Shown here piece after piece: positions 1 through 46,901 of a DNA stretch of 64,000 bases. The DNA comes from Candidatus Iainarchaeum sp. Lineage in GTDB: Archaea > B1Sed10-29 > WALL01. The stretch lies in NCBI GenBank assembly GCA_023129115.1, contig JAGMCR010000009.1:27064-91063 (forward strand), read 5' to 3'. The notes below the pieces were generated by a model. The model saw nothing but the letters and a program-made list of their open reading frames with translations, did not search any database and was not told where the DNA came from. The position numbers and the translations under genes are program-made. Every line of letters starts with the position of its first letter. Within the stretch, counting starts at the first letter, position 1.

Positions 1-141
1 CAGGCAGTGGGTGCACCGCTTGATTGTAATGTCCTCTGTCTCGGCGAGGCCGGGGTGGTCCTTGAGGTAGCAGTCGATGCAGAACCCGCCGTGGAAGGGC
101 CTGTCCGTTGCACCGCACTTGGGGCAGAACTTTCCCTTCAC
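1..141 (-). CDS. NMD3-family protein, N-terminal part (runs off the window)
   Basis: Manual translation from GTG at 141: MKGKFCPKCGATDRPFHGGFCIDCYLKDHPGLAETEDITIKRCTHCL; CxxC pairs typical of the NMD3 N-terminus; start overlaps the stop of the upstream gene. Confidence 0.75.
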   Translation of the reverse strand, partial: MKGKFCPKCGATDRPFHGGFCIDCYLKDHPGLAETEDITIKRCTHCL

Positions 142-1421
142 AGGTAGTCCTCCAGCTTGTACTTTTCGCCGAGCTTTGGCGCGAAGGCGTAGCAGCCGAG
201 CTCGCCCTCGGCCCACTGGCGCAGCAGCTCGCACTGCTCTTCCTCGCCGTGGTTCACAAACACGACGGAGGGGCTCGCCTTTTTCAGCATCTTGTGCAGG
301 CCATCCTTCCCCGCGTGCGCCGAGAAGTCGAAGTGCCGGACGTCCAGCCCAGAGCAGTCTGCCGAGACCCTTTCTGTCTCGAACCTTTTTTCCTCGAGGA
401 GCTGGCGGCCGGGAGTGCCGGGCACCTGGAATCCCGTGAAGAAGACCGCGGACCTGTCGACGTCTCTTATGTCCTGGACGTAGCGCACGGCCGGCCCGCC
501 GGAGAGCATGCCAGCGGTCGAGACGATTACGGAGGGCTCGTTGAAGACGTCGTTGCGCTGTGGCGGCGCGACAATCCAGTTCACCCACTTCATGGCGTTG
601 TAGAACTGCTCGTAGTCCTTCAGGAGCTCGGGGAAGTCGAGGTAGATTTCGGTGACCGCCCTCGACATGCCGTCCATGTAGACCGGCACGTCAAGCTTGT
701 GGGCATAAAGCATCGTGATTATTTCCTGGGTTCGGCCGACGGCAAAGCACGGCAGGAGGACGGAGCCGCCGTTGTCGGTGACGCCCTTGATTGCCTCCAG
801 AAACTCGTCTTCCAGCTGCTTGCGCGGCGGGTGGTCGCGGTCGCCGTACGTGGCCTCGATGATTAGTGCGTCTGCGTTTTTTGGCAGGTCGGCGCCCTTG
901 TGCAGGCAAGTGTCCTCGGTCTTGAAGTCGCCGCTGTAAACGATTGTGCGGCCCTCGGCCTCGGCCTCGACTATTGCGGCGCCGAGTATGTGGCCAGCGT
1001 CCCTCGGGGTGACGGACACGTCGGAAGTGGCGTGGTAGGTCTTGCCGTAGCTCATGCCGTCCGTGTTCCGGAGCATGCGCTTGAACTGGGGCTTGCGGAA
1101 ACAGCGTGTCTTGTTGCTGGCGGCGATTTTCATGGAGTCCTGGAGCAGTAGCTGCACTATGGGGACGGACGCGGTGTGCGTCAGGACCTGTGGCTCGCCG
1201 GCCTGGAAGAGGAACGGGAGTGCGCCGCTGTGGTCGAGGTGCGCGTGCGACAGCACGGCCGCGTCAAGGAAGCCATGGACCGGGAGGGGGAACTGTGGCT
1301 CGCGGTTTTCCTCGTCGCTCATCTTCATTCCGTAGTCAAAAACGACTTTGCTCTTGTTGGTCTCGAGCAGTACCGCGCTCCTCCCAACTTCACGCGCGGC
1401 GCCCAAAAATGACAGCTGCAT
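138..1421 (-). CDS. Beta-CASP metallo-beta-lactamase-fold ribonuclease
   Basis: GAAREVGRS, SHAHLDHSG, AGHILG, EATYG, FSAHAG and NHGE motifs. Confidence 0.92.
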   Translation of the reverse strand: MQLSFLGAAREVGRSAVLLETNKSKVVFDYGMKMSDEENREPQFPLPVHGFLDAAVLSHAHLDHSGALPFLFQAGEPQVLTHTASVPIVQLLLQDSMKIAASNKTRCFRKPQFKRMLRNTDGMSYGKTYHATSDVSVTPRDAGHILGAAIVEAEAEGRTIVYSGDFKTEDTCLHKGADLPKNADALIIEATYGDRDHPPRKQLEDEFLEAIKGVTDNGGSVLLPCFAVGRTQEIITMLYAHKLDVPVYMDGMSRAVTEIYLDFPELLKDYEQFYNAMKWVNWIVAPPQRNDVFNEPSVIVSTAGMLSGGPAVRYVQDIRDVDRSAVFFTGFQVPGTPGRQLLEEKRFETERVSADCSGLDVRHFDFSAHAGKDGLHKMLKKASPSVVFVNHGEEEQCELLRQWAEGELGCYAFAPKLGEKYKLEDYL

Positions 1422-1475
1422 TGCGCTAGTTAAACCCGGGAAGATTTATAAAGCTACGGTGCCTCTTACGCTACA

Positions 1476-2105
1476 ATGCTGAGCATGAAGGCGGGGTTTG
1501 CGCTTCTCGACAAGTACGGAATCCCCACCGCGAAGTTCGCCGTCGTGAAGAGAGTTGACGCGGCGGCAAAGGCGGCGAAAAAAATCGGCTACCCCGTGGC
1601 GGTGAAGATTGACTCGCCGGACATTGTGCACAAGACAGAGCGTGGCGTCGTGGCGGCGAACCTGAAAGACGAGGCCGAGCTGCGCGCCGGGGTCAAGAGG
1701 GTGCTGAAGCGCGCTGGCAAGGCGAGGGTGAGGGGCATCATTGTCCAGGAACACTGCTCGGGGAAGGAAGTCATTATTGGCGGGACGTGCGACGCGCAGT
1801 TCGGCGACGTGGTGCTGTTCGGCCTCGGCGGAATCTTCGTCGAGGTGCTGAAGGACTTTTCTGTCCGCGTAACGCCCATCACCAGGAGGGACGCCAAATC
1901 GATGGTGAAGGAAATCCGTGGCTATCCACTTCTTGCCGGGACGAGGGGGGAGAAGCCCGTGGCAATCCCCACCATCGTGAACACAATTATCAAGGCGTCA
2001 AGAATGCTCGAGAGAGAGCCGAAGATAAAGGAGCTTGACATCAACCCGCTGTTCGTAGATGAAAAAGGGGTTAAGGCGGCTGACGTGAGAGTGATAACAT
2101 ACTGA
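1476..2105 (+). CDS. acdB: ADP-forming acetate-CoA ligase beta subunit (ATP-grasp)
   Basis: IGYPVAVK..SPDIVHKTE.G, FGLGGIFVEVLKD, ELDINPL. Confidence 0.9.
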   Translation: MLSMKAGFALLDKYGIPTAKFAVVKRVDAAAKAAKKIGYPVAVKIDSPDIVHKTERGVVAANLKDEAELRAGVKRVLKRAGKARVRGIIVQEHCSGKEVIIGGTCDAQFGDVVLFGLGGIFVEVLKDFSVRVTPITRRDAKSMVKEIRGYPLLAGTRGEKPVAIPTIVNTIIKASRMLEREPKIKELDINPLFVDEKGVKAADVRVITY

Positions 2106-2116
2106 GCCTCGATGTC

Positions 2117-3475
2117 GTGTTCAAGCCTAAGAGCGTGGCGATGGTCGGCGCGTCAGCGACTCCTGGAAAAATCGGGCACGTAATCCTGCAGGGGCTTATG
2201 AAGGGGTTCGAGGGGAGGGTTTATCCCGTGAACCCGCACGAGGAAGAGATACTCGGGCTCAAGTGCTACCCGAAAGTGGCGGCAATCCCGAAGCAGGTGG
2301 ATCTCGCGGTCATCGCGGTGCCCGCCAAGCTTGTGCCACAGGTGATGAGGGACTGCGGGAAAAAGGGCATGAGGGGCGCGATAATAATCTCGGGCGGGTT
2401 CAGCGAGATTGGCAACAAGGCGCTGGAAGACGAAGTGCGGCGCATAGCGAACAAGAACAAAATTGCAGTCATCGGGCCGAACTGCCTCGGCGTCTACGAC
2501 TCGTACAGCAAGATGGACACACTGTTCAACCCGCGGTACAAGATGGAGCGACCGAGGGAGGGCGGCATATCATTTATATCGCAGTCCGGAGCGGTCGGAG
2601 CGGTCGTAATGGACTGGGCCGGCGCAGAAGGGTTCGGGTTCAGCAAATTCATCTCGTACGGCAACGCGCTGAACATTGACGAGGTCGACCTGCTGGACTA
2701 CCTCGGCAAGGACCCGAGCACCAAGGTAATATGCATGTACCTCGAGGGCACGCGCAGGGGCAAGGACTTCATCAAGGCCGCGAAGCGCGTCAGCCTCAAA
2801 AAGCCCATCATTGGCCTGAAGGCGGGGAAGAGCGACGAGGGTGCGAAGGCGGTTGCGTCGCATACGGGCTCACTTGCCGGCACAGCCAGGGTGTGGGAGG
2901 CCGCGTTCCGCCAAGCGGGCGTGGTCGAGGCGAGGAGCATGCCCGAAGTGTTCAACTACGCGCGCGCGTTCGCGGAGCAGCCGCTGCCGAAGGGCGGCAG
3001 GGTCGGCATAATCACTAATGGGGGAGGGTTCGGCGTGCTCGCGACCGACGCGTGCATAGAGAATGGCCTGGAAGTCCCGCCGCTGGCCAAGAAGACCGCG
3101 CAGGAAATCCGGAAAAAAGTGCCTTCGTACGCGACCGTGAAGAACCCGATTGACCTAGTGGGCGACTCGGACTATTTGAGGTATGAGGCCGCCATCAACG
3201 CCCTGCTGAAGGACAAGTCAATCGACTCGATACTCTGCATCGTGCTGTTCCAGACCGCCGACATAGACTCGAGAGTGATAAGCGTGATTTCAGAGGCGAG
3301 CGACTTGGCGAAGAAGCCGATAGTCTGCTGCGCAGCCGGCGGCGAGTACTCGAGGCTGCACAGCCAATTGCTTGAGGAGGCCGGAGTCCCAACGTTCAGC
3401 AGCCTCAAGGCGGCGGCTGACACGCTGGCAGCAATAACTTATTACGATGAGTTCAGGAAGTCTGTCCGGAAATAA
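2117..3475 (+). CDS. acdA: ADP-forming acetate-CoA ligase alpha subunit
   Basis: FKPKSVAMVGAS, IGPNCLG, SQSGA, SHTGSLAG (phospho-His), NPIDL. Confidence 0.92.
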   Translation: MFKPKSVAMVGASATPGKIGHVILQGLMKGFEGRVYPVNPHEEEILGLKCYPKVAAIPKQVDLAVIAVPAKLVPQVMRDCGKKGMRGAIIISGGFSEIGNKALEDEVRRIANKNKIAVIGPNCLGVYDSYSKMDTLFNPRYKMERPREGGISFISQSGAVGAVVMDWAGAEGFGFSKFISYGNALNIDEVDLLDYLGKDPSTKVICMYLEGTRRGKDFIKAAKRVSLKKPIIGLKAGKSDEGAKAVASHTGSLAGTARVWEAAFRQAGVVEARSMPEVFNYARAFAEQPLPKGGRVGIITNGGGFGVLATDACIENGLEVPPLAKKTAQEIRKKVPSYATVKNPIDLVGDSDYLRYEAAINALLKDKSIDSILCIVLFQTADIDSRVISVISEASDLAKKPIVCCAAGGEYSRLHSQLLEEAGVPTFSSLKAAADTLAAITYYDEFRKSVRK

Positions 3476-17179: not shown

Positions 17180-18166
17180 TTACTCCTCAAGGAGCTTATT
17201 TACAAACTTAACGAGGAATTCTGAGGCTTGACGGGCTGTTTCACGGTTTTCTTTGTTTAACTTTTGGGCTCCAGCGTAGCCAAGCGAGCAACTGCTGCAG
17301 AAACAGCCACTCCGCTCCAGTCCATTGTAGTATTCCTCAACTTCTTTCGGCGTAAACTCTGATTGCTCTACCTTTGATGGCCGCGTGAGCACTTCCATAA
17401 ACATATCCGCAGGCGGACACGGCGCTAAGTTCTCCGCGGGCTTTATCTCCAACGAGTCTTTTAGTGACTTCGCAACCTTGCGGTGTTCTTCTTTATCTGT
17501 AAGTAACTCAAACGGTGGCTTGTTTTCATCAAAAGAGAATCTAGGGTCCCCGTGAACATCAATGTAGTGTTCAGGCCTCATAAGGTAATACACGACGTGA
17601 TGAATTTCAGGGCGGTCGTACCCCTCAGACGGGATGATATTTTCTTTTATCAGCTCTTCCTCAGCCCGTGTCATCGCTTCCGCGTCTGGCTTAAGCCCAA
17701 TCACTCCTTTTTCCACTAACTCTCTTGGCGTGGCACTCATTAGCCCTTTGTCCACCCATCTTTGGTATTTTTCTTCTGACTCACCATACCCCAACTGCTT
17801 CAGGACCTCGTCGGTCGGAACTGGCTTACTGTACTTGCGTGCTCTTGAATTGATTAATGCGTCTCTGTGGATATCACAAACACCGTTCAGCTCAATGAAA
17901 CCCACTTCTTTTTTGTCCTCAAGATTCTTGCGTGCGAGCATAGCGGTAAGCTTACCAATTTTCTCATTAAGGTGAACGCCATACTGCAAGACTACCTTTT
18001 TGCCAGCTAAGCCAACGAGCTGACGAAGGATGTCTCGATCCACTTCATTTTTGGGCTTACCCATCTCACCAATAATGAGCTTGCGTAGCTCCTTTGGCGT
18101 AGCTTCCTTTGGGAAACCAGGAAAACGCCCGCGCAAGAACTCTTGGTGTCTTTCTCCCTTGGCCAT
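17180..18166 (-). CDS. Hypothetical protein
   Basis: 328-aa ORF, lower GC than flanks; H.D and IDVH motifs; no confident family. Confidence 0.6.
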   Translation of the reverse strand: MAKGERHQEFLRGRFPGFPKEATPKELRKLIIGEMGKPKNEVDRDILRQLVGLAGKKVVLQYGVHLNEKIGKLTAMLARKNLEDKKEVGFIELNGVCDIHRDALINSRARKYSKPVPTDEVLKQLGYGESEEKYQRWVDKGLMSATPRELVEKGVIGLKPDAEAMTRAEEELIKENIIPSEGYDRPEIHHVVYYLMRPEHYIDVHGDPRFSFDENKPPFELLTDKEEHRKVAKSLKDSLEIKPAENLAPCPPADMFMEVLTRPSKVEQSEFTPKEVEEYYNGLERSGCFCSSCSLGYAGAQKLNKENRETARQASEFLVKFVNKLLEE

Positions 18167-22908: not shown

Positions 22909-23169
22909 ATGAGAGACTACGAAGAAGCTGTGCTTATTGCTCTTTTTGATGAGAAAATAATTGGCTCTAGCTATAAGCCAATTGAAAAGGCTGCTCGTAA
23001 AATTAACTGGGGTGGGATTGCCAGGAAGTACGATGTAAAGAAGTCTTTCAAGAAAGTCCTGCAGGGACTTGCCCGGAAGGGCGTTGTAAGTGACCATGGC
23101 AAGTCAGGCAGGGTGGTCTCCCTGACACTGGCTGGACTGGCTTACCTAAGGAGCGAGTTGGAAGTATAA
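22909..23169 (+). CDS. Small hypothetical winged-helix-like protein
   Basis: 86 aa; LQGLARKGVV...VVSLT.AG pattern. Confidence 0.6.
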   Translation: MRDYEEAVLIALFDEKIIGSSYKPIEKAARKINWGGIARKYDVKKSFKKVLQGLARKGVVSDHGKSGRVVSLTLAGLAYLRSELEV

Positions 23170-36809: not shown

Positions 36810-37106
36810 ATGGTCAATCCCGCCAACTTCACGGCGCTGCCCATTGCATTTAACGAGCCGAGCGGGCTCATAGTGCTCGCCGTGGGCGCAGTCGTCGTCG
36901 TTGCCGCGTTCTACATATTCTTCCGCATAATCAAGGACGTCATCGCAAACGCCATAATCGGCGGAATCGGCTTGATAGTGCTGCACTTCGCCGGCCCACA
37001 CATCGGCGTCAGCGTGCCCATCGACTTGATAAACATCGTAATCGCCATCCTCGGCGGATTGCCGGGACTGGCCATAATAGTCGTTTTCTCGGCTCTTGGG
37101 CTATAG
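36810..37106 (+). CDS. BofA-like small membrane protein
   Basis: IANAIIGGIGLIVL..IG..VPI..INI.IAILGGLPG. Confidence 0.75.
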   Translation: MVNPANFTALPIAFNEPSGLIVLAVGAVVVVAAFYIFFRIIKDVIANAIIGGIGLIVLHFAGPHIGVSVPIDLINIVIAILGGLPGLAIIVVFSALGL

Positions 37107-37115
37107 CCTAGCTCA

Positions 37116-37151
37116 GTAGACTAGGGGGGCGTCAACTGACGCCCCCCCTAG
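37116..37151. repeat. GC-rich palindromic repeat copy
   Basis: GTAGA-CTAGGGGGGCGTC-AACT-GACGCCCCCCCTAG. Confidence 0.8.
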
Positions 37152-37167
37152 GCTGGTTTGAATTAAG

Positions 37168-37255
37168 TTATTTGAATACTCCAGCAATCTTCGCGCTGCA
37201 CGACGGGCACTTCCCCTTGTCCACGTGGCTTTCCAGCAGCGCGAAGCCGTGCCGC
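37168..37255 (-). repeat. Orphan duplicate of the last 28 codons plus stop of the radical SAM gene
   Basis: 37206-37255 identical to 37351-37400; encodes RHGFALLESHVDKGKCPSCSAKIAGVFK* versus RHGFALLESHVDKGKCHSCGQKIAGVFK*. Confidence 0.9.
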
Positions 37256-37276
37256 AGCCCAAACCTGAGCTGGCGA

Positions 37277-37310
37277 GGTAGACTTGGGGGGCACAAAGCC
37301 CCCCAGAGGC
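37277..37310. repeat. GC-rich palindromic repeat copy
   Basis: GGTAGACT-TGGGGGGC-ACAAA-GCCCCCCA-GAGGC. Confidence 0.75.
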
Positions 37311-37312
37311 AG

Positions 37313-38317
37313 TTACTTAAAAACGCCGGCAATCTTCTGCCCGCAGCTGTGGCACTTCCCCTTGTCCACGTGGCTTTCCAGCAGCGCGAAGCCGTGCCGC
37401 TTTATCAATGCCTCGCCGCAGTTGGGGCAGTGCGTGTTCTCGAACGGGTCGCCGGGATAAGTGTTGCCGCAGTACACGTACTTCACGCCGCTCTCGAGCG
37501 CGATTTCCCTTGCCTTTACGAGCGTCTCGCGCGGGGTGGGGTTGGTGTTCCGCATCTTGTACGCGGGAAAGAACGCGGAGAAGTGGAGGGGCATGTTTGG
37601 GTCGAGGTCGTGCACGAACTCCGAGATTTGTAGTATGGACGCGTTGTCGTCGTTCTGGCCGGGGATGATGAGGTTGGTCACCTCGACCCAGGTCTTGTTC
37701 CGCTTCATTCTTTTTATTGAGTCGAGGACGTGCTGCATCTCGACGCCGCCGCACACTTTTTTGTAGAACTCTTCGTTGCCCTTTACGTCGACGTTGGCGG
37801 CGTCCAATTCCTTGTAGTCCTTGAGCATTTCTTTGGTCATGTAGCCGTTCGTGACGAAGACGTTCTTGATTTTTTGTTTGTGCGCGAGCACGCTGGTGTC
37901 CTTGGCGTACTCGTAGAAAATCGTTGGCTCCGTATAAGTGTAGCTGATGCTTGGTGTTTTGTACTCGCCCGCCAATCGCACGACTTCACTTGGCGGGACC
38001 TCGCGCTGCGGCCCGGCCTCCCACGCGGCCTGGCTGATTTCCCAGTTCTGGCAGTGCTGGCAATGCAGGTTGCATCCCACAGTCGCGATGCTGAGGGTTT
38101 CGGTGCCCGGCAAAAAATGAAACAGCGGCTTTTTTTCGATGGGGTCCGTGTTGACCGAGCATGGCTTGGCGTACGTCATTGCGTACAGGGTGCCGCGGAT
38201 GTTCTCGCGCACCTGGCAGTTGCCCCTGCCGCCCTCGGGGATTTTGCACCGCCGGTTGCACAGGCTGCACTGGACGGCCTTGTCCTTGAGCTTTTTGTAT
38301 AGGTACGCTTCTTTCAC
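37313..38317 (-). CDS. AmmeMemoRadiSam-system radical SAM enzyme (PFL-activase-like)
   Basis: DPIEKKPLFHFLPG, CNLHCQHCQNWEISQ, YTYTEP; start taken at GTG 38317. Confidence 0.92.
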   Translation of the reverse strand: MKEAYLYKKLKDKAVQCSLCNRRCKIPEGGRGNCQVRENIRGTLYAMTYAKPCSVNTDPIEKKPLFHFLPGTETLSIATVGCNLHCQHCQNWEISQAAWEAGPQREVPPSEVVRLAGEYKTPSISYTYTEPTIFYEYAKDTSVLAHKQKIKNVFVTNGYMTKEMLKDYKELDAANVDVKGNEEFYKKVCGGVEMQHVLDSIKRMKRNKTWVEVTNLIIPGQNDDNASILQISEFVHDLDPNMPLHFSAFFPAYKMRNTNPTPRETLVKAREIALESGVKYVYCGNTYPGDPFENTHCPNCGEALIKRHGFALLESHVDKGKCHSCGQKIAGVFK

Positions 38318-38340
38318 GCGAGAGACAAAGCGCCCCGCCG

Positions 38341-38385
38341 ATATAAAGGTTTTGTGCAAAAATAATGCAAGGGTTTTATATAGTG
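38341..38385. promoter_or_regulatory. Divergent TATA boxes for the radical SAM gene (-) and the his leader/operon (+)
   Basis: atataaa at 38341 (TTTATAT on minus) and TTTTATATA at 38374, each roughly 25-35 nt from a start codon. Confidence 0.6.
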
Positions 38386-38416
38386 GGAAAGCCGCAATAG
38401 TAGCTACGTGATAGCG

Positions 38417-38711
38417 ATGAAAGGCGATTCACTTCACAAGGGCATGGAAAGTTAGGCTGGACAAGAAGTTCAGGCTAGTTCTGCCTTTGGAAGCGAGGGA
38501 GTCGCTTGGAATCACGGACGAGGTTCTTGTTGTTTTTGACGGCAAAGCGGTAGCCATAACCAATTCGAAGGGCGAGAGCGGGAGAGCTATTTCAAAGAAT
38601 GTTGTTGAGTGCGGCTCGGGTAGTGTAACGGCTGGCACAGTAGGTTGTGGTCCTGCTAGAGCGGGTTCGACTCCCGCCCCGAGCCCTAAACGAGGTGGTG
38701 AAGATGATTAA
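38417..38711 (+). CDS. his leader ORF1: AbrB/MazE/SpoVT-like protein, apparently requiring a +1 frameshift at CTT-CAC (38432-38437)
   Basis: 0-frame MKGDSLHKGMES* (38417-38455); +1 frame TRAWKVRLDKKFRLVLPLEARESLGITDEVLVVFDGKAVAIT...EDD* has no canonical start before the AbrB motif. Confidence 0.7.
38613..38685 (+). tRNA. tRNA-His(GUG) or tRNA-His-like element
   Basis: G-1 + GCTCGGG/CCCGAGC + C73; D arm GTGT/GCAC; GTAGG-TTGTGGT-CCTGC; GCGGG-TTCGACT-CCCGC; CCA not encoded. Confidence 0.88.
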
Positions 38712-38866
38712 GGGTGTTTCACTTCACCAAAGCCTACTTTCTGGAGACGCAAGGCTCGGCAGCCCTCATAGCTGAAGCAGTCATTCTCAGGAATGGCATT
38801 GTTTGCAATGTAGAGATTATTGTTAATGGTTCAATGCGGGGCAAAGCAGAGGTGAGTTTTTCATGA
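38704..38866 (+). CDS. his leader ORF2, putative +1 frameshift at CTT-CAC (38722-38727), coupled to hisD
   Basis: GAGGTG RBS; 0-frame MIKGVSLHQSLLSGDARLGSPHS* (38704-38775); +1 frame TKAYFLETQ...AEVSFS* ends in ATGA overlap with the hisD start. Confidence 0.6.
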
Positions 38867-40035
38867 ATGAAAAAGTTCAGGGAATTATCCTGGATGTTCG
38901 GGAGAACGGCGACGCAGCTATTCGCAAGTATGCCAGGCAATTCGACGGCGTTGAGATGGACTGTCTGGAGGTAACAAAAAAAGAAATCCGGGAAGCGTAC
39001 GCCGCCTTAAGCGAGAAAGAATTGGCTGCGATAAAAAAAGCCGCGTCAAACATCAAGTGGTTTGCAGAGAAGCAGAAGCCAAAGGAGTGGATGGAAGAGA
39101 GGGAGGGGATGCTCCTCGGCCAGATAGTGAAGCCGCTTGACTCTGTGGGCGTGTACGTGCCCGGCGGGAATTATCCACTGCCGTCCTCGGCCCTCATGGG
39201 CGTGATACCGGCGAAGGTGGCTGGCGTAGGGGAAATTGTCGTGTGCTCTCCAAAGGCAAGGCCGGCGGTCCTGGTGGCGGCCGACATTGCCGGCGCTGAC
39301 AGGATATTCAGGATAGGGGGAGTCCAGGCAATAGCTGCAATGGCGTATGGCACAGAAAGCGTTCCAAAGGTAAGCAAGATTGTTGGGCCTGGGAACGCCT
39401 ACGTGACCGCAGCCAAAAAACTGTTGTTCGGCGAGGTCGGGATTGACATGCTCGCGGGGCCGACCGAGGTCATGATAATTGCCGACGAAAACGCGAACCC
39501 AAAGTACATCGCAGCCGACATGCTCGCGCAGATGGAGCACGACACGAATGCGGAAGCGATTCTGGTCACGACATCAAAGGAAGTTGCTGCAGAAGTGGAG
39601 AAGCAGCTCGAAAGGCAGCTGGAAACGCTTTCGACAAGCGGGATAGCGAGCGAGGCAAAAAAAGAGATAATCGTTGTTGGGAACCTGGGCGAGGCGTTTG
39701 AGCTGGCGAACGAGCGTGCGCCGGAGCACCTCGAGATAATGATTCCGGATGAGGGGCTGCTGGAAAAAGTGAGGAACGCTGGGGCAGTCTTCATCGGCGA
39801 GTACAGTGTGGAGGCTGGGGGCGATTACGCCACTGGCCCCAACCACGTTCTGCCGACTGGCGGCTTTGCAAAAGCAAGGGCGGGCCTTTCGGTCATGGAC
39901 TTCGTGAAAATGCCAAGCGTCCAGATTGTTTCCAAAGAAGGGCTGGAGAACTTGAGGGAAACCGTTGGGACACTGGCGGACATGGAGGGATTGGAGGCCC
40001 ACAAAAAATCAGTGGAGGTGAGGTTCGATGGGTAA
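38863..40035 (+). CDS. hisD: Histidinol dehydrogenase
   Basis: GVYVPGG, GPGNAYV, IDMLAGPTE, APEHLE, GDYATGPNHVLPT. Confidence 0.96.
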   Translation: MNEKVQGIILDVRENGDAAIRKYARQFDGVEMDCLEVTKKEIREAYAALSEKELAAIKKAASNIKWFAEKQKPKEWMEEREGMLLGQIVKPLDSVGVYVPGGNYPLPSSALMGVIPAKVAGVGEIVVCSPKARPAVLVAADIAGADRIFRIGGVQAIAAMAYGTESVPKVSKIVGPGNAYVTAAKKLLFGEVGIDMLAGPTEVMIIADENANPKYIAADMLAQMEHDTNAEAILVTTSKEVAAEVEKQLERQLETLSTSGIASEAKKEIIVVGNLGEAFELANERAPEHLEIMIPDEGLLEKVRNAGAVFIGEYSVEAGGDYATGPNHVLPTGGFAKARAGLSVMDFVKMPSVQIVSKEGLENLRETVGTLADMEGLEAHKKSVEVRFDG

Positions 40036-41647
40036 GAAACCAAGAAAGTGCATTGAGGCGTTGAAGCCGTACGTATGCGCCAGAAGCCTTTTCAAAAAAG
40101 GCGTGATGATGGACGCAAACGAGAACTCGATAGGCTCAGCCGTAAGCAATGGGCTAAACAGGTACCCGGACCCGGCATGCAGTGAACTGAAGAATGCTTT
40201 GTCGGAATACGTTGGTGTTCCCGCTGAAAACATATTTGTGGGGAACGGCTCGGACGAATGCATTGACCTCTTGGTCAAGTGCTTTGTGGAGGCGGACGAG
40301 AACGTGGTGGTCCTCGAGCCGACGTATGCAATGTACCGGGTCGCCGCAGAGTCCTATGGCGTTGAGTACCGGAGTTGTTTGCTTGACGAGGGCTTCCAGA
40401 TAGACTTCGCGGAATTGGAAGGGATTGTTGACCGCAAGACCAAGCTGGTCTTCTGCTGTTCCCCGAACAACCCGACCGGCAATAGTTTGGAGAGTGTGCT
40501 TGAGGTGGCGAAGAGGCTTGACGCGATTGTCGTGGTGGACGAGGCATACGCCGAGTTCTCGGGAAAGGGCCTGGCCGCTGACGCCGTGGGCTATGACAAC
40601 CTGGTTGTGCTCCGGACCTTTTCAAAGGCGTGGGGGCTTGCTGGCGCGAGGGTCGGCTACTTGGTTGCCGCCAAAAGGATTGTCGAGTGCCTGGACAAGG
40701 CCAAGCTCCCTTACAACGTCAGCGCTGTCTCGCAGCGGCTTGCGCTGGGCGCGCTCAAGAACAAAGGCAAAATGCTCGCGATGGTGGAAGAAATAACCAG
40801 GGAGCGGGAGAGGATGGCGCAGGAGATTCGCCGGATGGGGGGCGAGGCCTTTGCGTCAGAAGCGAACTTTGTTTTGTTCAGGTTTAACAAGAATGCCAGG
40901 CAGATACAGGAAAGGCTTGCACGCAAGGGCATCGTGATAAGGGACAGGTCAGGGCTGCCAAGAACAGGGAATTGCCTGAGGGTGACTGTCGGGGGAAAAA
41001 GTGAAAACGATGAGTTCCTGAAGCGGCTTGGGTTGGCTGTCGCCGATGCAGTCATCTTCGATATTGACGGCGTGCTTGTTGATGTGTCCAGCTCTTACAG
41101 GGAAGCAATCCTGCGGACAGTGGAGTGGTGGGGGGGACAGGCAACGAATGGCGACATCAGCCGGCTCAAGGGCTTGGGATTCAATAACGATTGGGACGTC
41201 ACGTATGCGCTCGCGAAAAAAACTACGGGCGTGGACCGGGGCGACCCGGATTACTCCCTGCTGAAGCAAAAGTTTCAGGAACTCTACCTCGGTGGGCTCA
41301 TAGACAAAGAAAAAAAGATTGTCAAGCCGGAGATGCTGGACAGGTTAGTGGGTTATAGGCTTGGCATCGCCACCGGCAGGCCAAGAGCCGAGGCACTCTA
41401 CTGCCTGAAGGGCTTCATCCCGAAATACTTCAGAGAGGGGTGTATAGTGGCGCTCGAGGACTGTGGGAAAGAAAAGCCGGACCCCACACCGCTGCTCAAG
41501 GCAAAGAAAGCACTGGGGTGCAAGGCGCCAGTGTATGTCGGGGACACTGCAAGTGATGAGCTCGCGGCAAAGGCAGCGAACATGCCCTGCATCATTGTTG
41601 GCAGGGACATCGAGGACGTTAACGAATTACCGGAGGCAATGGGATGA
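40028..41647 (+). CDS. hisC: Histidinol-phosphate aminotransferase fused to a C-terminal HAD phosphatase
   Basis: NRYPD, GNGSDE, SPNNPTG, RTFSKAWGLAG.R; then FDIDGVLVD, TGRP, KPDP, VGDT..D. Confidence 0.93.
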   Translation: MGKKPRKCIEALKPYVCARSLFKKGVMMDANENSIGSAVSNGLNRYPDPACSELKNALSEYVGVPAENIFVGNGSDECIDLLVKCFVEADENVVVLEPTYAMYRVAAESYGVEYRSCLLDEGFQIDFAELEGIVDRKTKLVFCCSPNNPTGNSLESVLEVAKRLDAIVVVDEAYAEFSGKGLAADAVGYDNLVVLRTFSKAWGLAGARVGYLVAAKRIVECLDKAKLPYNVSAVSQRLALGALKNKGKMLAMVEEITRERERMAQEIRRMGGEAFASEANFVLFRFNKNARQIQERLARKGIVIRDRSGLPRTGNCLRVTVGGKSENDEFLKRLGLAVADAVIFDIDGVLVDVSSSYREAILRTVEWWGGQATNGDISRLKGLGFNNDWDVTYALAKKTTGVDRGDPDYSLLKQKFQELYLGGLIDKEKKIVKPEMLDRLVGYRLGIATGRPRAEALYCLKGFIPKYFREGCIVALEDCGKEKPDPTPLLKAKKALGCKAPVYVGDTASDELAAKAANMPCIIVGRDIEDVNELPEAMG

Positions 41648-42219
41648 AAGTTGAAGTGGAAAGGAACACAACGGAAACGCAGGTTGAAGTAAAGCTGGAC
41701 ATCAATGGGACAGGAGAAAGGAGGATAGACACGGGCGTTGGGTTCCTGGACCACATGCTTGAGTTGTTCGCGAAGCAAGGGCTTTTTGACCTGGAGGTGA
41801 AGGCCACTGGGGACCTAAGGGTCGACGACCACCACACTGTCGAGGACGTCGGGATTGTGCTGGGCCAGGCGTTCAGGAAAGCGATTGGCGACAAGATAGG
41901 CATTGGGAGGTACGGCTACTTTGTCCTGCCAATGGACGAATCGCTTGCAATGTGCGCCATTGACCTTTGCGGGAGGGGCTCGCTTGTGTTCAACGCAGAA
42001 TTCGAGAGGGAGCGGGTCGGCGACTTGAGCACTGAATTGGTCTATGACTTTTTCAAGGCGTTCGCGGACAACTGTGGCGCAAGCGTGCACGTGAAAGTGT
42101 TCTACGGGCGGAACGAGCACCACAAGATAGAGGCAATCTTCAAGGCGTTCGCAAAAGCGATGCGCATGGCCTGCGAAATTGAAGGCGGAGGGATTCCGAG
42201 CACGAAGGGGATGCTATGA
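41644..42219 (+). CDS. hisB: Imidazoleglycerol-phosphate dehydratase
   Basis: FLDHML, DDHHTVED, NEHHKIEA, PSTKG. Confidence 0.96.
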   Translation: MKVEVERNTTETQVEVKLDINGTGERRIDTGVGFLDHMLELFAKQGLFDLEVKATGDLRVDDHHTVEDVGIVLGQAFRKAIGDKIGIGRYGYFVLPMDESLAMCAIDLCGRGSLVFNAEFERERVGDLSTELVYDFFKAFADNCGASVHVKVFYGRNEHHKIEAIFKAFAKAMRMACEIEGGGIPSTKGML

Positions 42220-42806
42220 TTGCAATAGTTGACTATGGCATGGGAAACATTAGGAGTGTTGAAAAGGCTCTGCAGAAAGCCGGGGCAGAAGTAGTGGTAA
42301 CCAGCGATGCCGAAGCAATTCGGGAGGCGGATGGCGTCGTGGTGCCGGGCGTGGGTGCGTTCGACAGCGCGATGAAGAGGCTGGGCCCGTTCAGGGAAGC
42401 AATCCTTGGCTCGATAGAAGACGGAAAGCCTTTCCTCGGCATTTGCCTCGGGATGCAGGTGCTGGTCGAAAAAAGCGAGGAGGGAAAGGAGCCCGGGCTG
42501 GGGGTTGTGAAAGGAAGGGTCGTGAGGTTCCGTGGCGTGAAGACGCCGCATGTTGGGTGGAACCAGCTGGAGATGGAGCCTGGCTGCCCGCTGTTCAAGG
42601 GGATTCCCCAGGAGAGCCGGGTTTACTTCGTGCACTCCTATTACGCGGTCCCGGGCGAGCAGGTGATTGCAAGCAAAACAGAGTACGGTACAATGTTCTG
42701 CTCGGCGATATGGAAAAAGAACGTGCTGGCGACGCAGTTCCACCCCGAAAAAAGCGGCGAAGCCGGGCTGAAGATGCTCAAGAACTTTGTGGAGTTGGTT
42801 GAATGA
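42216..42806 (+). CDS. hisH: IGP synthase glutaminase subunit
   Basis: DYGMGN, PGVGAF, GICLGMQ, QFHPEKS. Confidence 0.96.
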   Translation: MIAIVDYGMGNIRSVEKALQKAGAEVVVTSDAEAIREADGVVVPGVGAFDSAMKRLGPFREAILGSIEDGKPFLGICLGMQVLVEKSEEGKEPGLGVVKGRVVRFRGVKTPHVGWNQLEMEPGCPLFKGIPQESRVYFVHSYYAVPGEQVIASKTEYGTMFCSAIWKKNVLATQFHPEKSGEAGLKMLKNFVELVE

Positions 42807-43468
42807 AAGTGATTCCGGCAATAGACATCATGGACGGAAAAGCAGTGAGGCTTGTGCAGGGAGACCCAAACAAAAAGAGGGTTTACGGAGAGCCTGCAGA
42901 GGTAGCGGAAGCCTTTGCGGAATGCGTTGACTTGGTGCATGTGGTTGACCTTGACGGCGCGTTCGAGGGCAGGCCGGTGAACACGGGCACAATCAAGAAG
43001 CTGTCGGGAATCGTGCGCGTGCAGGTGGGCGGCGGAATACGCTCTGAAAAAGCATTGGCGGAAATCCTGGAGTGCGCAGCGAAGGCAGTCGTAAGCACGT
43101 GGGTGCCAAAGGAACTCAGCCGGGTAGTTGTCTCGCTCGACGTGCGGGACGGGGTGGTCTTCACCAGGGGATGGAAGGAAAGGACGGATGTGGACGTGGT
43201 CGAGTGCGCGAGGCGCCTGGAGTCACGGGGCTGCAAAGAACTCATAGTTACGGACATTGATTCGGACGGGACGCTGGAGGGGCCGAACATGGAGTTAATC
43301 AAAAGGGTCGTGCGTTCGGTGGAAGTGCCTGTGACAATCGCTGGTGGAATCAGTTGCCTGGGGGACATAAGAAAGATTAAAGAGACAGGGGCGGCGGCTG
43401 TGATAATCGGGAAAGCCTTGTACGAGAAAAAGTTTGGCCTGGAGGAGGCGATTGAGAGTGCTCGCTAA
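42803..43468 (+). CDS. hisA: ProFAR isomerase
   Basis: [39 protein letters not shown]. Confidence 0.95.
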
Positions 43469-44195
43469 AAGAATCATTCCTTGCCTGGACGTTGACTGCG
43501 GAAGAGTGGTGAAGGGAACAAAGTTTGTTGAGCTGAAGGACGCGGGCGACCCCGTGGAACTGGCCAGAAGGTATGATAAAGAAGGGGCGGACGAGCTGGT
43601 TTTCCTGGACATAACCGCATCCTCTGACAAGCGGGGGATTATGCTTGACGTCGTGAAAAGGGTTTCCGAGCAAGTGTTCATACCGTTCACTGTTGGGGGC
43701 GGCATAAAAACAATTGAGGAAATCAGGGAGATACTGCGGAACGGTGCGGACAAGGTTTCCCTGAACACTGCCGCGATTGAGGACCCTGCTTTGGTGAAAA
43801 GCGCTTCAGAAGAGTTTGGCTCGCAGTGCATCGTGGTCGCGATAGACGCGAAACGGGGCAGTGTCTACAAGTACGGCGGGCGGGAGGACACTGGCATGGA
43901 TGCAGTGCAGTGGGCGAGGCGGGCCGAAGCGCTTGGGGCAGGGGAAATCCTCTTGACGAGCATGGACGCCGATGGCACGAGAAAAGGGTTTGACCAGGAA
44001 TTGACGAGGGCCGTGGCAGGGGCGGTGAACATACCCGTAATCGCGTCGGGAGGGGCGGGGACGCCCCGGGATATTTACAATGTTTTGGAATATGCGGATG
44101 CTGCGCTGGCCGCGGGCATCTTTCACTATGGCGCTTACTCCATTCAGGAAGTGAAGGACTACTTGAGGAAAAAAGGAATGCAGGTGAGATTATGA
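43458..44195 (+). CDS. hisF: IGP synthase cyclase subunit
   Basis: [40 protein letters not shown]. Confidence 0.96.
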
Positions 44196-44758
44196 AGGTA
44201 AAGTTTGATGAGAAGGGCCTGGTGCCCGTGATTGCACAGGACTGCGAGACGAACAAGGTGCTGATGCTGGCATACGCCAACAAGGAAGCGCTGGACAAGA
44301 CAGTGCAAACTCGGGACGCGTGGTACTGGAGCAGGAGCAGGAAACAGCTCTGGAGGAAAGGCGAGGGCAGTGGCAACACTCAAGCGGTTGTGGACATACT
44401 GAGTGACTGCGACAGCGATGCACTGATTTACCGGGTGAAACAAAATGGCGTTGCGTGTCATTTGGGGAATTACTCGTGCTTCAGGACAATCCTTGACGAA
44501 GTCTACGGTGTAATCCAGGACAGGGCGAGGAACCCGACGCCTGACTCATATACTTGCAAGCTAATCCGGGACAAAGAAAAAATCCTTCGGAAGATAAACG
44601 AGGAGGCGTACGAGCTGGTGCTGGCCGCAAAGGAAGGGAACAAAAAAGAAATCGTGTGGGAAACAGCTGACCTTCTTTACTTCGTGCTTGTGCTTCTCGC
44701 GGTGAATAACGTAGGGCTGGGCGATGTATGGAGTGAACTGAGGAGGCGAAGAAAATGA
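44192..44758 (+). CDS. hisIE: Bifunctional PR-AMP cyclohydrolase/PR-ATP pyrophosphatase
   Basis: WSRSR..LWRKGE.SG, DCDSDAL, ACHLG..SCF; SYT..L, KI.EEA.E, E.ADLLY. Confidence 0.94.
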
Positions 44759-45609
44759 TTAAGGTTGTTCTGCCAAAGGGCAGGCTTTTCAAGGAAGTGG
44801 TTAAGCTCCTGGGGGAAGCTGGCTACACGCTCAAGGGGACGGAAAGGTCTTACCGGCCTGCCATCAATGACCCGGAGATAGAAGTCAAGATAATGAAGGC
44901 CCGGAACATCCCGAAGCTTGTGGAGCTTGGCTCGCATGACTTGGGCATCACGGGATACGATTGGGTTGTGGAAAACAAGGCAGACGTAGCCGAGCTTCTG
45001 GACCTTGGCTATGGGCGGGTGCGGCTGGTCGCTGCTGTCCCAAAAAACGGGTGCAAAAGCATTCAGGGCCTCAAAGGGAAAAAGGTTGTGGCTGCATCGG
45101 AGTACCGGAGCATCACAGAGCAATACCTTGAAGAGAACGGCATTGAATACGAGTTCATCCAGTCGTTTGGCGCGACAGAAGTATTTCCGCCGGAAGATGC
45201 CGACATAATAATTGAGAACATAGAGACCGGCGAGACGCTCAAGCAGAACAACCTGGCCGTGATAGGCACGCTCATGGAATCGAGTGCGAGGCTGATAGCG
45301 AACAAAGAAAGTTTGGAAGACGGCAGGAAAAAGAAGAAGATAGAAGACATAACCATGCTGATTAACAGTGCGCTGATTGCGAGGGAACGGGTTTTCCTTG
45401 AGATGAACGTGTCGGAAGAAAAGCTGGAGGCTGTTTGCAAGCTCTTGCCGGCAATGAAGTCCCCAACAATAAGCAAGCTGTACAGCGACGAGGGCTATGC
45501 GATAAAAGCGGCGGTAAAGAAAAACGACGTGCCTGCATTAATCCCAAAGCTAAAGCAGGCGGGAGCGACCGACATACTGGAATTTGAGCTGCGGAGGGTT
45601 GTGGCATAG
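44755..45609 (+). CDS. hisG: ATP phosphoribosyltransferase (long form)
   Basis: [34 protein letters not shown] regulatory domain. Confidence 0.95.
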
Positions 45610-45647
45610 GGAAAGAATAAAAACAACGCATTCAAAAGGTGATTGGC

Positions 45648-46901
45648 ATGTTTCAAACAGTGCGCGGCATGAGGGACCTCGAGCCCGAGGAAATGCGGAA
45701 GAGGCAGTTCTTCTGGGACAAGGTCAGGAAGGTTTACGAGAGCTACGGGTTTGCGCGGCTCGAGACGCCTGCCGTGGAAAGCTTTGACTTGTTGTCTGCC
45801 AAGGGAGGCGGCGGCCAGGAAATCAAGAAAGAAATCTATTACTTCAAGGACCAGGGCGACAGGGAATTGGGGCTGCGGTTCGACATGACCGTCCCAACCG
45901 CGCGCTACGTCGCGAGCGACGCGTCGCTGCCGAAGCCGTTCAAGCGGTATTGCTACGGCCAGGTGTGGAGGTACGACCGGCCGCAGGCCGGGCGCTACCG
46001 CGAGTTCACGCAGTGTGATATCGATATCTTTGGGATTGCGACGCCCGCTGCGGACTTTGAAATCTTTGCGGCGACTGTCGACGCGTTCCTCGCGCTCGGG
46101 TTCAAGAAATTTTTCATCCGCGTGAACAACAAGAAGTTGCTGGCGGGGCTGATGGACGCTGCGGGAATCAAGGACGACAAAAAGCTTGACGCGTGGCGCG
46201 CGATTGACAAGCAGGACAAAATTGGGTGGGGCGGCGTCGAGGAAGAACTGAAGAAAAGGAAAGTCCCCAACGGAAAGAAAGTGATTGCGCTGATCAAGGG
46301 CAACAAAATCACGAAAGAGATTACTGCCTCGGAAGCGGGCGCAAAAGGCAAGGAAGAAATGGACGCGTTCCTTGCCTTGTGCAAGGCCGCGAAAATGGAG
46401 AAGTACGTCAAAGTCGACTTGTCTCTCGTGCGGGGACTGGAGTATTACACTGGGATTACTTACGAGGTCATGGCCGGCGGAAAGTGGTCGTGCGGCGGCG
46501 GGGGGAGGTACGACGACTTGATAAAACTGGTTGGGGGGCAGGACACGCCCGCAGTGGGGATTTCGTACGGCGTGGACCGCGTGATTCAGTTAATGGGCGA
46601 GGCGGGCCTGTTTCCAGAGCTGGGGGGCACGAAGTGCTTCGTGGCCGCGGTGAACGACTCGGTGCGTTTAAAGGCGGCTGAGATAGCTGCGGGGCTGAGA
46701 AAAGAGGGGGTTTCAGCCGAGACCGACTTGGCGGGAAGAGCCCTCCGCAAGCAGTTCGACTACTGCAATTCCCGGGGCATCCCCTACTGCGTGATTGCCG
46801 GGCCCAAGGAGCTGAAAGACAAGCAGGTGGTATTGCGGGACATGGGGACTGGCAAAGAGGAGAAGGTCAACCTCGCCTCGCTCGCCGGCAAGCTGAAGTG
46901 A
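45648..46901 (+). CDS. hisS: Histidine--tRNA ligase
   Basis: LRFDMTVP, RPQAGRYREFTQ, RGLEYYTG, GGGRYD. Confidence 0.96.
   Translation: MFQTVRGMRDLEPEEMRKRQFFWDKVRKVYESYGFARLETPAVESFDLLSAKGGGGQEIKKEIYYFKDQGDRELGLRFDMTVPTARYVASDASLPKPFKRYCYGQVWRYDRPQAGRYREFTQCDIDIFGIATPAADFEIFAATVDAFLALGFKKFFIRVNNKKLLAGLMDAAGIKDDKKLDAWRAIDKQDKIGWGGVEEELKKRKVPNGKKVIALIKGNKITKEITASEAGAKGKEEMDAFLALCKAAKMEKYVKVDLSLVRGLEYYTGITYEVMAGGKWSCGGGGRYDDLIKLVGGQDTPAVGISYGVDRVIQLMGEAGLFPELGGTKCFVAAVNDSVRLKAAEIAAGLRKEGVSAETDLAGRALRKQFDYCNSRGIPYCVIAGPKELKDKQVVLRDMGTGKEEKVNLASLAGKLK

Follow-up and report, generated by a model that had tools for sequence, protein, structure and literature searches.

How would an open reading frame (ORF) be translated that bears the marks of purifying selection and nevertheless offers no canonical start codon ahead of its conserved core? 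The question is raised by the leader region of a histidine operon in the window, which is the whole 64,000-nucleotide (nt) stretch analysed here (positions 27,064 to 91,063 of contig JAGMCR010000009.1, Candidatus Iainarchaeum sp.); two short leader ORFs containing TCA-CTT-CAC precede hisD, and each is overlapped by a longer open frame at +1. Judged from the sequence, a +1 ribosomal frameshift out of the leader, at a site built like that of bacterial prfB and with a cognate sense codon in the ribosomal A site, is considered the most economical account of start-less ORFs under selection and is rated as rather probable. It is favoured because it also covers the hisG case described below, the invariant frame-0 His codon, the Shine-Dalgarno (SD)-like element at a fixed distance and the rule by which the A-site codon follows the neighbouring genes. 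The region at 38374-38866 could, at not quite an even chance, be the control region of the histidine regulon of this Iainarchaeota-like (DPANN) archaeon; the full reading, in which prfB-like +1 leaders with a cognate sense codon in the A site would sense His-tRNA and gate an AbrB-type regulator together with hisD, hisS and hisG, is held at a similarly tentative strength. In what follows W1 and W2 are the loci of the window's cassettes 1 and 2, G000 is the source genome, and L-numbers are loci in relatives.

The argument depends on the following elements of the window:

38417-38455, plus strand: leader mini-ORF 1 (frame 0), a 12-codon leader from ATG 38417 to TAG 38453-55 with the peptide MKGDSLHKGMES before the stop.
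38423-38437, plus strand: cassette 1, with hexamer GGCGAT (38423-28), spacer TCA, P-site codon CTT (38432-34) and A-site codon CAC (38435-37).
38421-38612, plus strand, +1 frame: predicted gene of an AbrB-type (swapped-hairpin) small protein, with a conserved core at 38433-38612 and the frame open to TAA 38709-11.
38692-38775, plus strand: SD GAGGTGGTGA (38692-38701) and leader mini-ORF 2, from ATG 38704 to TGA 38773-75, beginning MIKGVSLHQ.
38713-38727, plus strand: cassette 2, with hexamer GGTGTT (38713-18, containing the in-frame GTG 38714), TCA, CTT (38722-24) and CAC (38725-27).
38714-38866, plus strand: +1 ORF 2, 50 codons from GTG 38714, of which 47 lie past the site, ending at TGA 38864-66.

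Both mini-ORFs contain TCA-CTT-CAC with one His codon per leader, and both hexamers end 3 nt upstream of CTT; the first-pass annotation, made from the letters alone, had described these sites and the SD-like stretches before them, and its account of two mini-ORFs with early stops, open +1 frames and stop/start overlaps agrees with the window sequence throughout. Open from 38421 onward, the +1 frame of ORF1 reaches the TAA at 38709-11, which overlaps the ATG of ORF2 as ATGATTAA; the +1 frame of ORF2 is open from 38708, and its TGA at 38864-66 overlaps the hisD ATG at 38863 as ATGA. Mini-ORF 1 has an in-frame GTG at 38408 and an SD-like GTGAT 4 nt upstream of its ATG, and the leaders of relatives begin with ATG or GTG in the same frame and conserve ...L/V-H. 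The duplex of cassette 1 with the 3' tail of 16S is calculated at -6.2 kcal/mol, where controls average -2.07. From its ATG to CAC this cassette is the same in copy 1 of L002 at 21/21 nt, while the body of the ORF has a synonymous divergence (pS) of 0.70. A repeat search found a 22-nt direct repeat, 38416-37 versus 38706-27, with the two copies 82% alike. For the +1 ORF 2 no homology was detectable; it lacks the invariant D, R and P in its body and was rejected as a demonstrable AbrB paralogue at an hhalign probability of 1% against the AbrB profile.

The first-pass annotation had treated the +1 frame of ORF1 as a plain relay frame; the frame is indeed open, but it is also a conserved AbrB-type gene that had been overlooked. 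Between the TGA at 38418-20 and the invariant LD..R..P core this frame contains no ATG, GTG or TTG, the first such codon being TTG 38487. That codon was rejected as a start because initiation there would remove the invariant LDKKFRLVLP, and re-initiation after the frame-0 stop was rejected since it would likewise lose this segment. By comparison with relatives the ORF is under purifying selection: the ratio of nonsynonymous to synonymous divergence (dN/dS) is 0.18 at pS 0.57 between the window ORF and copy 2 of L002, with differences that are mostly synonymous, it is 0.17 between L015 and L016 (pS 0.56-0.57), and it ranges from 0.17 to 0.22 among start-less copies in different genera. L002, from another genus, carries two copies whose protein identity to the window ORF is 66% and 53%.

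The product of the +1 frame is an AbrB-type protein by a family match that is reached through the profile, and DNA binding is predicted for it. A 14-member profile (A3) matches solved AbrB N-domain structures with an E-value of 7.7e-8 and also matches Abh, SpoVT and MraZ; among the 14 family members, Pfam detects MazE_antitoxin in seven (best E 4.5e-8) and MraZ in four. L027 passes TIGR01439 (34.6 vs 28.3), and the window ORF taken alone is sub-threshold (MraZ 17.7 bits, cutoff 23). A homologous-protein search with the 62-amino acid (aa) ORF gave no candidate in the protein collection. The AlphaFold2 (AF2) monomer has a pLDDT of 78.9 and a pTM of 0.51. Nine of the top ten Foldseek matches of the model are AbrB-type chains (AbrB, Abh, SpoVT, Sso7c4) and the tenth is histone-like (5itj/5itm); these matches are weak, with TM scores of 0.51-0.65, probabilities of 0.60-1.0 and no E-value at or below 0.001.

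The frame break is a property of the genome rather than of its assembly. Sequencing or assembly error was rejected by indel-free contigs together with conservation across genera, and the one-base indel that had been suggested as a check is found at neither cassette in the contigs compared. Contigs of two cold-seep samples from the same study (X2, and X1, possibly the source itself) are identical over 38322-39000 without an indel; a contig from another habitat (X5, about 93% alike, depth 2) is free of indels over 38375-38554, retains the cassette together with the frame-0 ATG and a stop in that frame, and is again without a canonical start in the +1 frame. Transcriptional slippage was rejected as well, since homopolymers at the two window cassettes do not exceed 3 nt. 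Chance was gauged by a scan of G000 (1.25 Mb in 19 contigs, 88.6% complete) for a start codon, at most 8 codons, an SD-like window, [CGT]TT, a sense codon, an early stop in frame 0 and, at +1, an ORF of 40 codons or more; this pattern, set after both window sites had been seen, gave 57 matches with any A-site codon and 3 with His. The 3 are both window cassettes and one antisense shadow, which lies within a 328-aa gene at window 17180-18166 and was rejected as a third His-type match.

Relatives were searched by profile in 31 genomes of the phylum and 401 further genomes, with stretches of 1.5-3 kb fetched per locus; scans of genome contigs and of metagenomes gave one locus each. Subfamily members with a His codon one frame behind the AbrB frame at ORF entry make up 29 His-type loci, and tRNA-His, HisRS, HisG or HisD lies within the fetched stretch in 21 of them. 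The conserved CTT-CAC leader that had been proposed as a check on related genomes recurs there as an SD-like hexamer, 3 nt, NTT and CAY, the P-site codon being CTT in 15 loci, GTT in 9, TTT in 2, and one each of TAT, CGG and CAT. All 24 tabulated His-type loci have NTC as the main-frame codon at the site, which puts CAY into frame 0; two-fold codons taken as controls from the same ORFs are mixed (Asp, GAC 17 and GAT 7; Asn, AAC 10 and AAT 6), and the site codon is TTT in 4/4 paralogues without His linkage. The SD-like element has a mean duplex energy with the 16S tail of -5.60 kcal/mol (n = 24) versus -2.07 at 23037 control codons (Mann-Whitney U test, p 2.7e-11), measured in a 10-nt window ending 2 nt upstream of the P codon; the energy peaks where the window ends 1-3 nt upstream. 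The tail used, ending ...GATCACCTCC, is present in 4/5 genomes searched. Strong SD-like windows before in-frame [CGT]TT-CAY are mildly depleted in ordinary long ORFs (5.8% vs 8.3%), in an ORF set that is crude and includes shadows.

Whether homologues are uninterrupted, which the first-pass annotation had named as the point that could overturn its reading, has a divided answer: a canonical start ahead of the core is lacking in 11 of the 29 loci (W1, L002a, L002b, L015, L016, L019, L037, L038, L067, L083 and L080), but the other 18 have an in-frame GTG or ATG. The start-less state is common within clades, namely W1/L002 and L015/L016. An alternative start at ATT 38427, also raised beforehand, was rejected as a general start; the equivalent codon elsewhere is ATC, AAT, GTT or AGT, and it is not AUN in at least 6 start-less cases. 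Two kinds of match were set aside: L009/L024 was spurious (ribosomal protein L6), and 22 further AbrB/VapB-like loci with ordinary starts (including L058-L062, L091, L103, L105, L109 and L111) do not belong to this subfamily.

For His, Asn and Tyr the A-site codon matches the specificity of the tRNA or synthetase that is encoded alongside. Analogous cassettes with other cognate codons, which had been suggested as a further check, were found before tRNA-Asn (AAT) and before tyrS (TAT). All three AbrB-like loci that adjoin tRNA-Asn read hexamer-NNN-GAA-AAT, and their +1 frame opens exactly at the AAA where the shift would land; one of the three (L057) is without a canonical start. The tyrS locus (NF006330, 435 bits) reads GGTGAA-CGT-CTT-TAT; a search of 401 genomes with the L027 protein did not find a second tyrS-linked copy, and the Tyr case therefore rests on one locus. 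When the A site was chosen by SD-like strength alone, among windows that lead by a +1 shift into the AbrB frame, the cognate residue was the first choice in 21/34 loci, including 3/4 of the Asn and Tyr loci, on which the geometry had not been fitted. The three tRNA-Asn loci (L056 120-328, L057 (oriented) 1319-1522 and L089 (oriented) 1501-1730) have AbrB-like ORFs that end inside the 5' end of tRNA-Asn, with the ORF stop formed by U8-A9-G10 of the tRNA; in their promoters GTGGGAA is found inverted, as TTCCCAC, and precedes the TATA box.

Cassettes are also seen where no AbrB ORF follows. In L036 a leader beginning MKNSAECLH overlaps the start of hisG, and its ...GAG-TGT-CTT-CAT leads into HisG; the HisG frame has no canonical start ahead of the conserved KGRL, and a +1 shift at CTT-CAT gives a HisG N-terminus of normal appearance. 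As far as its sequence goes, the cassette is the only way into hisG in that genome. L073 and L081 have cassettes at HisG-like starts, and L037 has a second leader, MSKGELLHL followed by a stop, between the AbrB stop and tRNA-His. In L104 the AbrB gene is followed by a cassette and a 42-codon +1 ORF that ends 4 nt upstream of hisD, the same layout as cassette 2 of the window with an unrelated peptide; the W2 +1 ORF was rejected as a homologue of this ORF, no BLASTP alignment being obtained. Since the layout is shared and the peptide is not, translation rather than the peptide would matter at W2 and L104. L040, L067, L081, L083, L095, L097 and L104 have two or three successive cassettes, where every ORF is shifted one base forward from the one before.

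Further features place the window cassettes in their surroundings:

38374-38389, plus strand: putative promoter, a TATA box (38374-82) followed directly by GTGGGAA (38383-89), a candidate operator.
38614-38686, plus strand: tRNA-His (GUG), called by ARAGORN and by Rfam (RF00005, 52 bits, E 1.3e-9), cloverleaf.
38863-46901, plus strand: hisD, hisC+HAD, hisB, hisH, hisA, hisF, hisIE, hisG and hisS (HisRS), assigned with Pfam and NCBIfam.

The tRNA-His gene, with G-1 encoded at 38613 opposite C73, lies inside the open +1 frame of ORF1. The path from this frame to ORF2 that the first-pass annotation had drawn is open as described, but it had passed over the tRNA gene that lies across it. In 21 of 34 loci the AbrB-frame stop and the following start codon lie -5..+13 nt apart, the next ORF being that of HisRS, HisG, hutH or a further leader; at W1, L002b, L019 and L021 the overlap is reached only after the frame crosses a called tRNA-His. 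These data would fit a relay of ribosomes better than expected.

From this anatomy we infer a frameshift that responds to His-tRNA, a role for the AbrB-type protein and translation across the unprocessed tRNA. The TATA and GTGGGAA promoter would drive a transcript that starts with the 12-codon leader, and the AbrB frame would be readable only by ribosomes that start at ATG 38417 and slip +1 at GGCGAT-TCA-CUU-CAC. With ample His-tRNA the leader would be read in frame and end at 38455; with the A site empty at CAC, peptidyl-tRNA-Leu, held on CUU by a G:U wobble, would re-pair on UUC, and translation would continue in the AbrB frame, through the tRNA-His gene, to the ATG of leader 2. Genes for tRNA-Leu(GAG) are present in G000. 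Leader 2 carries the same cassette and its +1 frame stops on the hisD ATG, so that downstream translation would be gated by stop/start coupling; the AbrB-type protein would probably act on the GTGGGAA adjacent to the TATA box. TATA with GTGGGA(A) is also found upstream of the AbrB-like gene in L002, L012, L015-L017, L019-L021 and L036-L038; it was rejected as a general promoter element of G000, where there are 3 matches and the copy at 38374 alone is intergenic, and the pair may serve as promoter and operator. The relay into hisD that had been proposed earlier stands in one part: the +1 ORFs do end in stop/start overlaps, but a second shift is not required because the +1 frame of ORF2 has the in-frame GTG 38714 and hisD has a well-placed SD of its own.

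Several observations weigh against the frameshift and sensor readings. An in-frame GTG or ATG lies 2-3 codons upstream of the site in 18/29 loci and in cassette 2, and ordinary initiation therefore explains the ORF there; the GTG is usually part of the hexamer GGTGAN and, because it lies inside it, the SD-like signal is indistinguishable from a conserved start codon in those loci. Part of the P sites are poor for +1 re-pairing (GTT in 9, TAT in 1 and CGG in 1 of the 29; in the Asn type, GAA). Among the His codons of G000, CAC predominates (8674 vs 4045), and in-frame CTT-CAC pairs are not avoided there (211 observed vs 189 expected); the site alone is therefore not strongly shift-prone. RNA structure nowhere stands out in the leader region, where the folds do not exceed those of shuffled sequences (z -0.84 and -1.70). 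In L104 the hisD leader has a frame-0 ORF of 46 codons, so the early stop is not universal, and a paralogue at L055 carries CTT-TAT with no tyrosine gene adjoining. The SD of hisD (GAGGTGA, 7 nt, ATG) is well placed, and coupling is therefore not needed for that gene. Crossing a tRNA gene means that translation needs an unprocessed transcript; a tRNA sequence is in any case constrained, compact genomes often contain overlaps, and in 6 loci (L017, L018, L022, L023, L037 and L080) the ORF stops before or at the tRNA start. The 16S tail was read in four relatives, the 16S rRNA of G000 itself being absent from the assembly. The relatives do not provide independent counts, and the His-type loci that supply the tallies are also those from which the geometry was derived.

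The in-frame starts just described are the ground for an account without any frameshift, in which the leader overlaps the next frame (AbrB, HisG or a +1 ORF) and a pause at its single His codon under scarce His-tRNA, or the lack of that pause, would control initiation of this frame at the hexamer GTG or at a near-cognate codon such as ATT 38427. Plain in-frame ATGs in L012, L018, L022 and L023 agree with it, as does an ATT at the equivalent place in W1, L002a, L015, L038 and L067; a conserved frame-0 His codon and the cognate rule would fit a pausing sensor equally, and in the minimum free energy (MFE) fold the SD of leader 2 is base-paired with the cassette-2 site (GGTGAAG/CTTCACC). We consider it unlikely, however, because 11 of the 29 loci have no canonical start and the start-less ORFs are nevertheless under purifying selection, the ATT-equivalent is ATC, AAT, GTT or AGT in L016, L019, L037, L002b, L036 cassette 2 and L083, and the hexamer variants GCG and GGG are two changes from AUG. 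A ribosome halted at CAC would moreover cover a start 6-9 nt upstream and repress at low His, which is the wrong sign for hisG and hisS. If a +1 shift does occur, it could instead be of fixed ratio, or corrective after the loss of a start, with the His codon following merely from the need of the AbrB domain for Phe-Thr/Ile (TTC-ACN/ATY). That pair is kept in the +1 frame in 28/29 loci, where it aligns with the start of the AbrB and MraZ domains; CAC is common and nothing indicates that it is decoded slowly, and the hexamers of the start-less loci are one change from GGTGAN. Against a shift that senses nothing, the Phe codon is TTC in 23/23 loci while other two-fold codons vary, and it is TTT in 4/4 His-unlinked paralogues; the cassette is also found with no AbrB frame behind it (HisG in L036, L073 and L081, the L037 spacer, and the hisD leaders W2 and L104), and in the Asn type the A site given by the geometry is AAT and lies apart from the Phe codon. 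On this balance a shift that is not a sensor is judged quite unlikely.

Less credence is given to an origin with neither recoding nor regulation, by local duplication of the 5' end of the AbrB gene, with start-less copies that are decaying or mis-assembled and overlaps that are operon packing. The W2 +1 ORF shows no detectable homology and none of the invariant residues (D, R and P), compact genomes often have ATGA overlaps, and a 50-codon open frame is not rare at this G+C (about 0.13 by our own estimate); the his operon, not detected in any of the 5 family relatives that were searched, may have been inserted recently. Decay is opposed by the dN/dS of 0.17-0.22 between start-less copies of different genera, by the absence of indels in the contigs compared, by a start-less state that is shared within clades (W1/L002, L015/L016), by a cassette that is 21/21 nt identical between genera at pS 0.70, and by the enrichment of the cassette beside His genes, where it follows the cognate rule. 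Very little credence is given to the idea that the conserved letters act as nucleic acid, whether as a hairpin (GTGAA...TTCAC), as a DNA operator for the AbrB-type protein or as a T-box-like specifier for tRNA-His. GGTGAA and TTCAC are complementary in L073, L081, L098 and L104, the SD of the cassette-2 leader pairs with the site, and CAC complements the anticodon of tRNA-His; W1, L002a, L015, L019 and L038, however, are unable to form the hairpin, the folds do not surpass their shuffles (the z-scores given above), no Rfam family other than tRNA is above threshold in 37000-40000, and the frame relations (always +1, starts in frame 0, stops past the site) would be left unexplained. The +1 shift with a cognate A-site codon is preferred to all of these.

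Around cassette 2, part of the SD of leader 2 (GGTGAAG, 38695-38701) is exactly complementary to its own shift site (CTTCACC, 38722-38728), and the two pair in the MFE fold; the site sequence TCACC also resembles the 16S tail. Within the +1 ORF of leader 2, at 38780-38797 on the plus strand, a 7-pair hairpin is followed by a T-rich tract; this is the one terminator-like match in 38250-39000, where 0.6 are expected. An Rfam search for a T-box RNA found none, its E-value scan of 37000-40000 giving only the tRNA and a chance miRNA match.

Other observations concern the histidine genes of G000. A second tRNA-His(GUG) is present on contig C15 (18132-18207, minus strand), 76 nt long and with a different D-loop; the profile search found no AbrB-like gene beside it. 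The hisC gene (40028-41647, plus strand) encodes 539 aa in which the aminotransferase is fused to an HAD domain (Pfam Aminotran_1_2 + HAD_2), and it could be a fused histidinol-phosphate aminotransferase and phosphatase. A hisD gene was not found in the 5 same-family relatives searched (G001-G005, 84-98% complete), and the best HisD match among the fetched loci is that of L104, a distant genome with the same leader layout; the his operon may have been acquired together with its leader.

Some loci of relatives have features of their own. In L080 (G157) the AbrB-like ORF, upstream of oriented 765, lies directly before tRNA-His and HisRS and has no canonical start; the preceding frame ends in three His codons and a stop, and no start codon for that frame was seen. 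L002 has an amino-acid racemase gene (1724-2572, minus strand) between its two AbrB-like copies, in frame with the first, and a histidine ammonia-lyase gene (2-1423, minus strand) after tRNA-His. This lyase has Cys in its cofactor triad, where we take the usual residue to be Ser (Ala-Ser-Gly). L002 also has a second copy of the tRNA-His 3' end some 70 nt beyond the tRNA, just before hutH (about 1431-1449 and 1500-1520, minus strand), which could be an integration scar. Downstream of the AbrB-like ORF in L015, L016, L017 and L018 the translation contains a tRNA-His-like stretch with extra sequence, in which neither ARAGORN nor Rfam calls a tRNA; as a guess, these loci may hold intron-containing or split tRNA-His genes.

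The presence of the device in many related genomes suggests a so far undescribed way of sensing the shortage of a single amino acid; no description of this system was found in the full-text literature as far as it was searched. More broadly, and rather doubtfully, the loci could represent a general DPANN class of aminoacyl-tRNA sensors composed of a leader, an SD-like element, a wobble-read P codon and a cognate A-site codon. In such a class the shortage of one charged tRNA (His, Asn or Tyr) would cause a +1 shift by which the AbrB-type regulator is made, and the overlaps would let ribosomes reach the corresponding genes for tRNA, synthetase and biosynthesis, at some loci by crossing a tRNA gene and by passing two or three serial cassettes. 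The regulatory +1 shifts known to us sense a release factor or polyamines and not an aminoacyl-tRNA, and we know of no amino-acid-specific sensor of tRNA charging in archaea. If the reading is true, it would explain why gene callers miss or truncate these small regulators, it would mean that SD:anti-SD pairing acts on elongating archaeal ribosomes, and the short, portable cassette, with its clear mutational predictions, would make it a directly testable idea.

Among known systems the nearest is prfB, in which a short zero-frame ORF precedes a product encoded at +1, the shift codon is CUU and an SD-like element lies exactly 3 nt upstream. Cassette 1 has the same short zero-frame ORF, early stop and +1 ORF without a start of its own, and cassette 2 resembles it in part only, the in-frame GTG 38714 being present; in both the CTT-C (38432-35 and 38722-25) is able to re-pair on UUN, and the SD-like element 3 nt upstream is complementary to 16S, although often confounded with an in-frame GTG. 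The A site here is CAC (His) rather than UGA, so that an aminoacyl-tRNA would be sensed instead of a release factor; the product is AbrB-type or HisG and not RF2, the host is archaeal, and cassettes occur in series with stop/start coupling. Because the A site is CAC and the product AbrB-like, the system is not a member of the prfB family and would only work like one. The prfB shift is triggered by a slow A site and acts as sensor and effector at once. Passages of PMC5009743 describe this class of frameshift; the frameshift sensors reviewed in those passages (2016) are those of RF2 and polyamines, and the shift in the pheL leader is called incidental. For archaea, passages of PMC8211752 (2021) give one proven case of programmed frameshifting in archaeal cells, a -1 shift, and a +1 shift only as a suggestion, in a virus.

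The SD-like stimulator of the present cassettes does not exist in eukaryotes, where the yeast sites are otherwise similar. At the CUU-AGG of Ty1, ABP140 and EST3 the P-site CUU is wobble-read and slips onto UUN while a scarce tRNA is awaited. The A-site tRNA of yeast is always scarce, whereas CAC is the major His codon here and its slowness would be conditional. The concept of the hungry codon is treated in passages of PMC5009743 and PMC8211752, and the former also present the antizyme +1 shift and the ketolide-induced shift of ermC as short-ORF frameshifts that serve as sensors, with new-frame ribosomes opening the way to the downstream gene in ermC. The signals there are polyamines or an antibiotic, and the types of site differ.

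Within the AbrB superfamily the +1 product is like AbrB, SpoVT, MazE and MraZ in its profile and, less securely, in its predicted fold; this subfamily differs in its own C-terminal [IV]S[KR]N motif and the lack of a toxin partner, in its linkage to tRNA-His, hisS and hisG, and in being start-less in 11/29 loci. Attenuation at hisL of enterobacteria shares with the window a short leader ORF and a cognate His codon ahead of histidine genes, the leader being read by ribosomes as a measure of charged tRNA-His. The hisL leader has a run of seven His codons; here there is one, with no terminator/antiterminator found, and the output would be a change of frame with coupling. The T-boxes of Firmicutes are alike in using a cognate leader codon to place genes for tRNAs, synthetases and biosynthesis under the control of one specific amino acid; they differ in that no Rfam T-box match is present here and the codon would be read by the ribosome rather than by an uncharged tRNA binding the RNA. 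If the reading holds, the cassette would be the archaeal counterpart of attenuation and T-boxes, and a third solution beside them for matching tRNA, synthetase and biosynthesis genes to demand.

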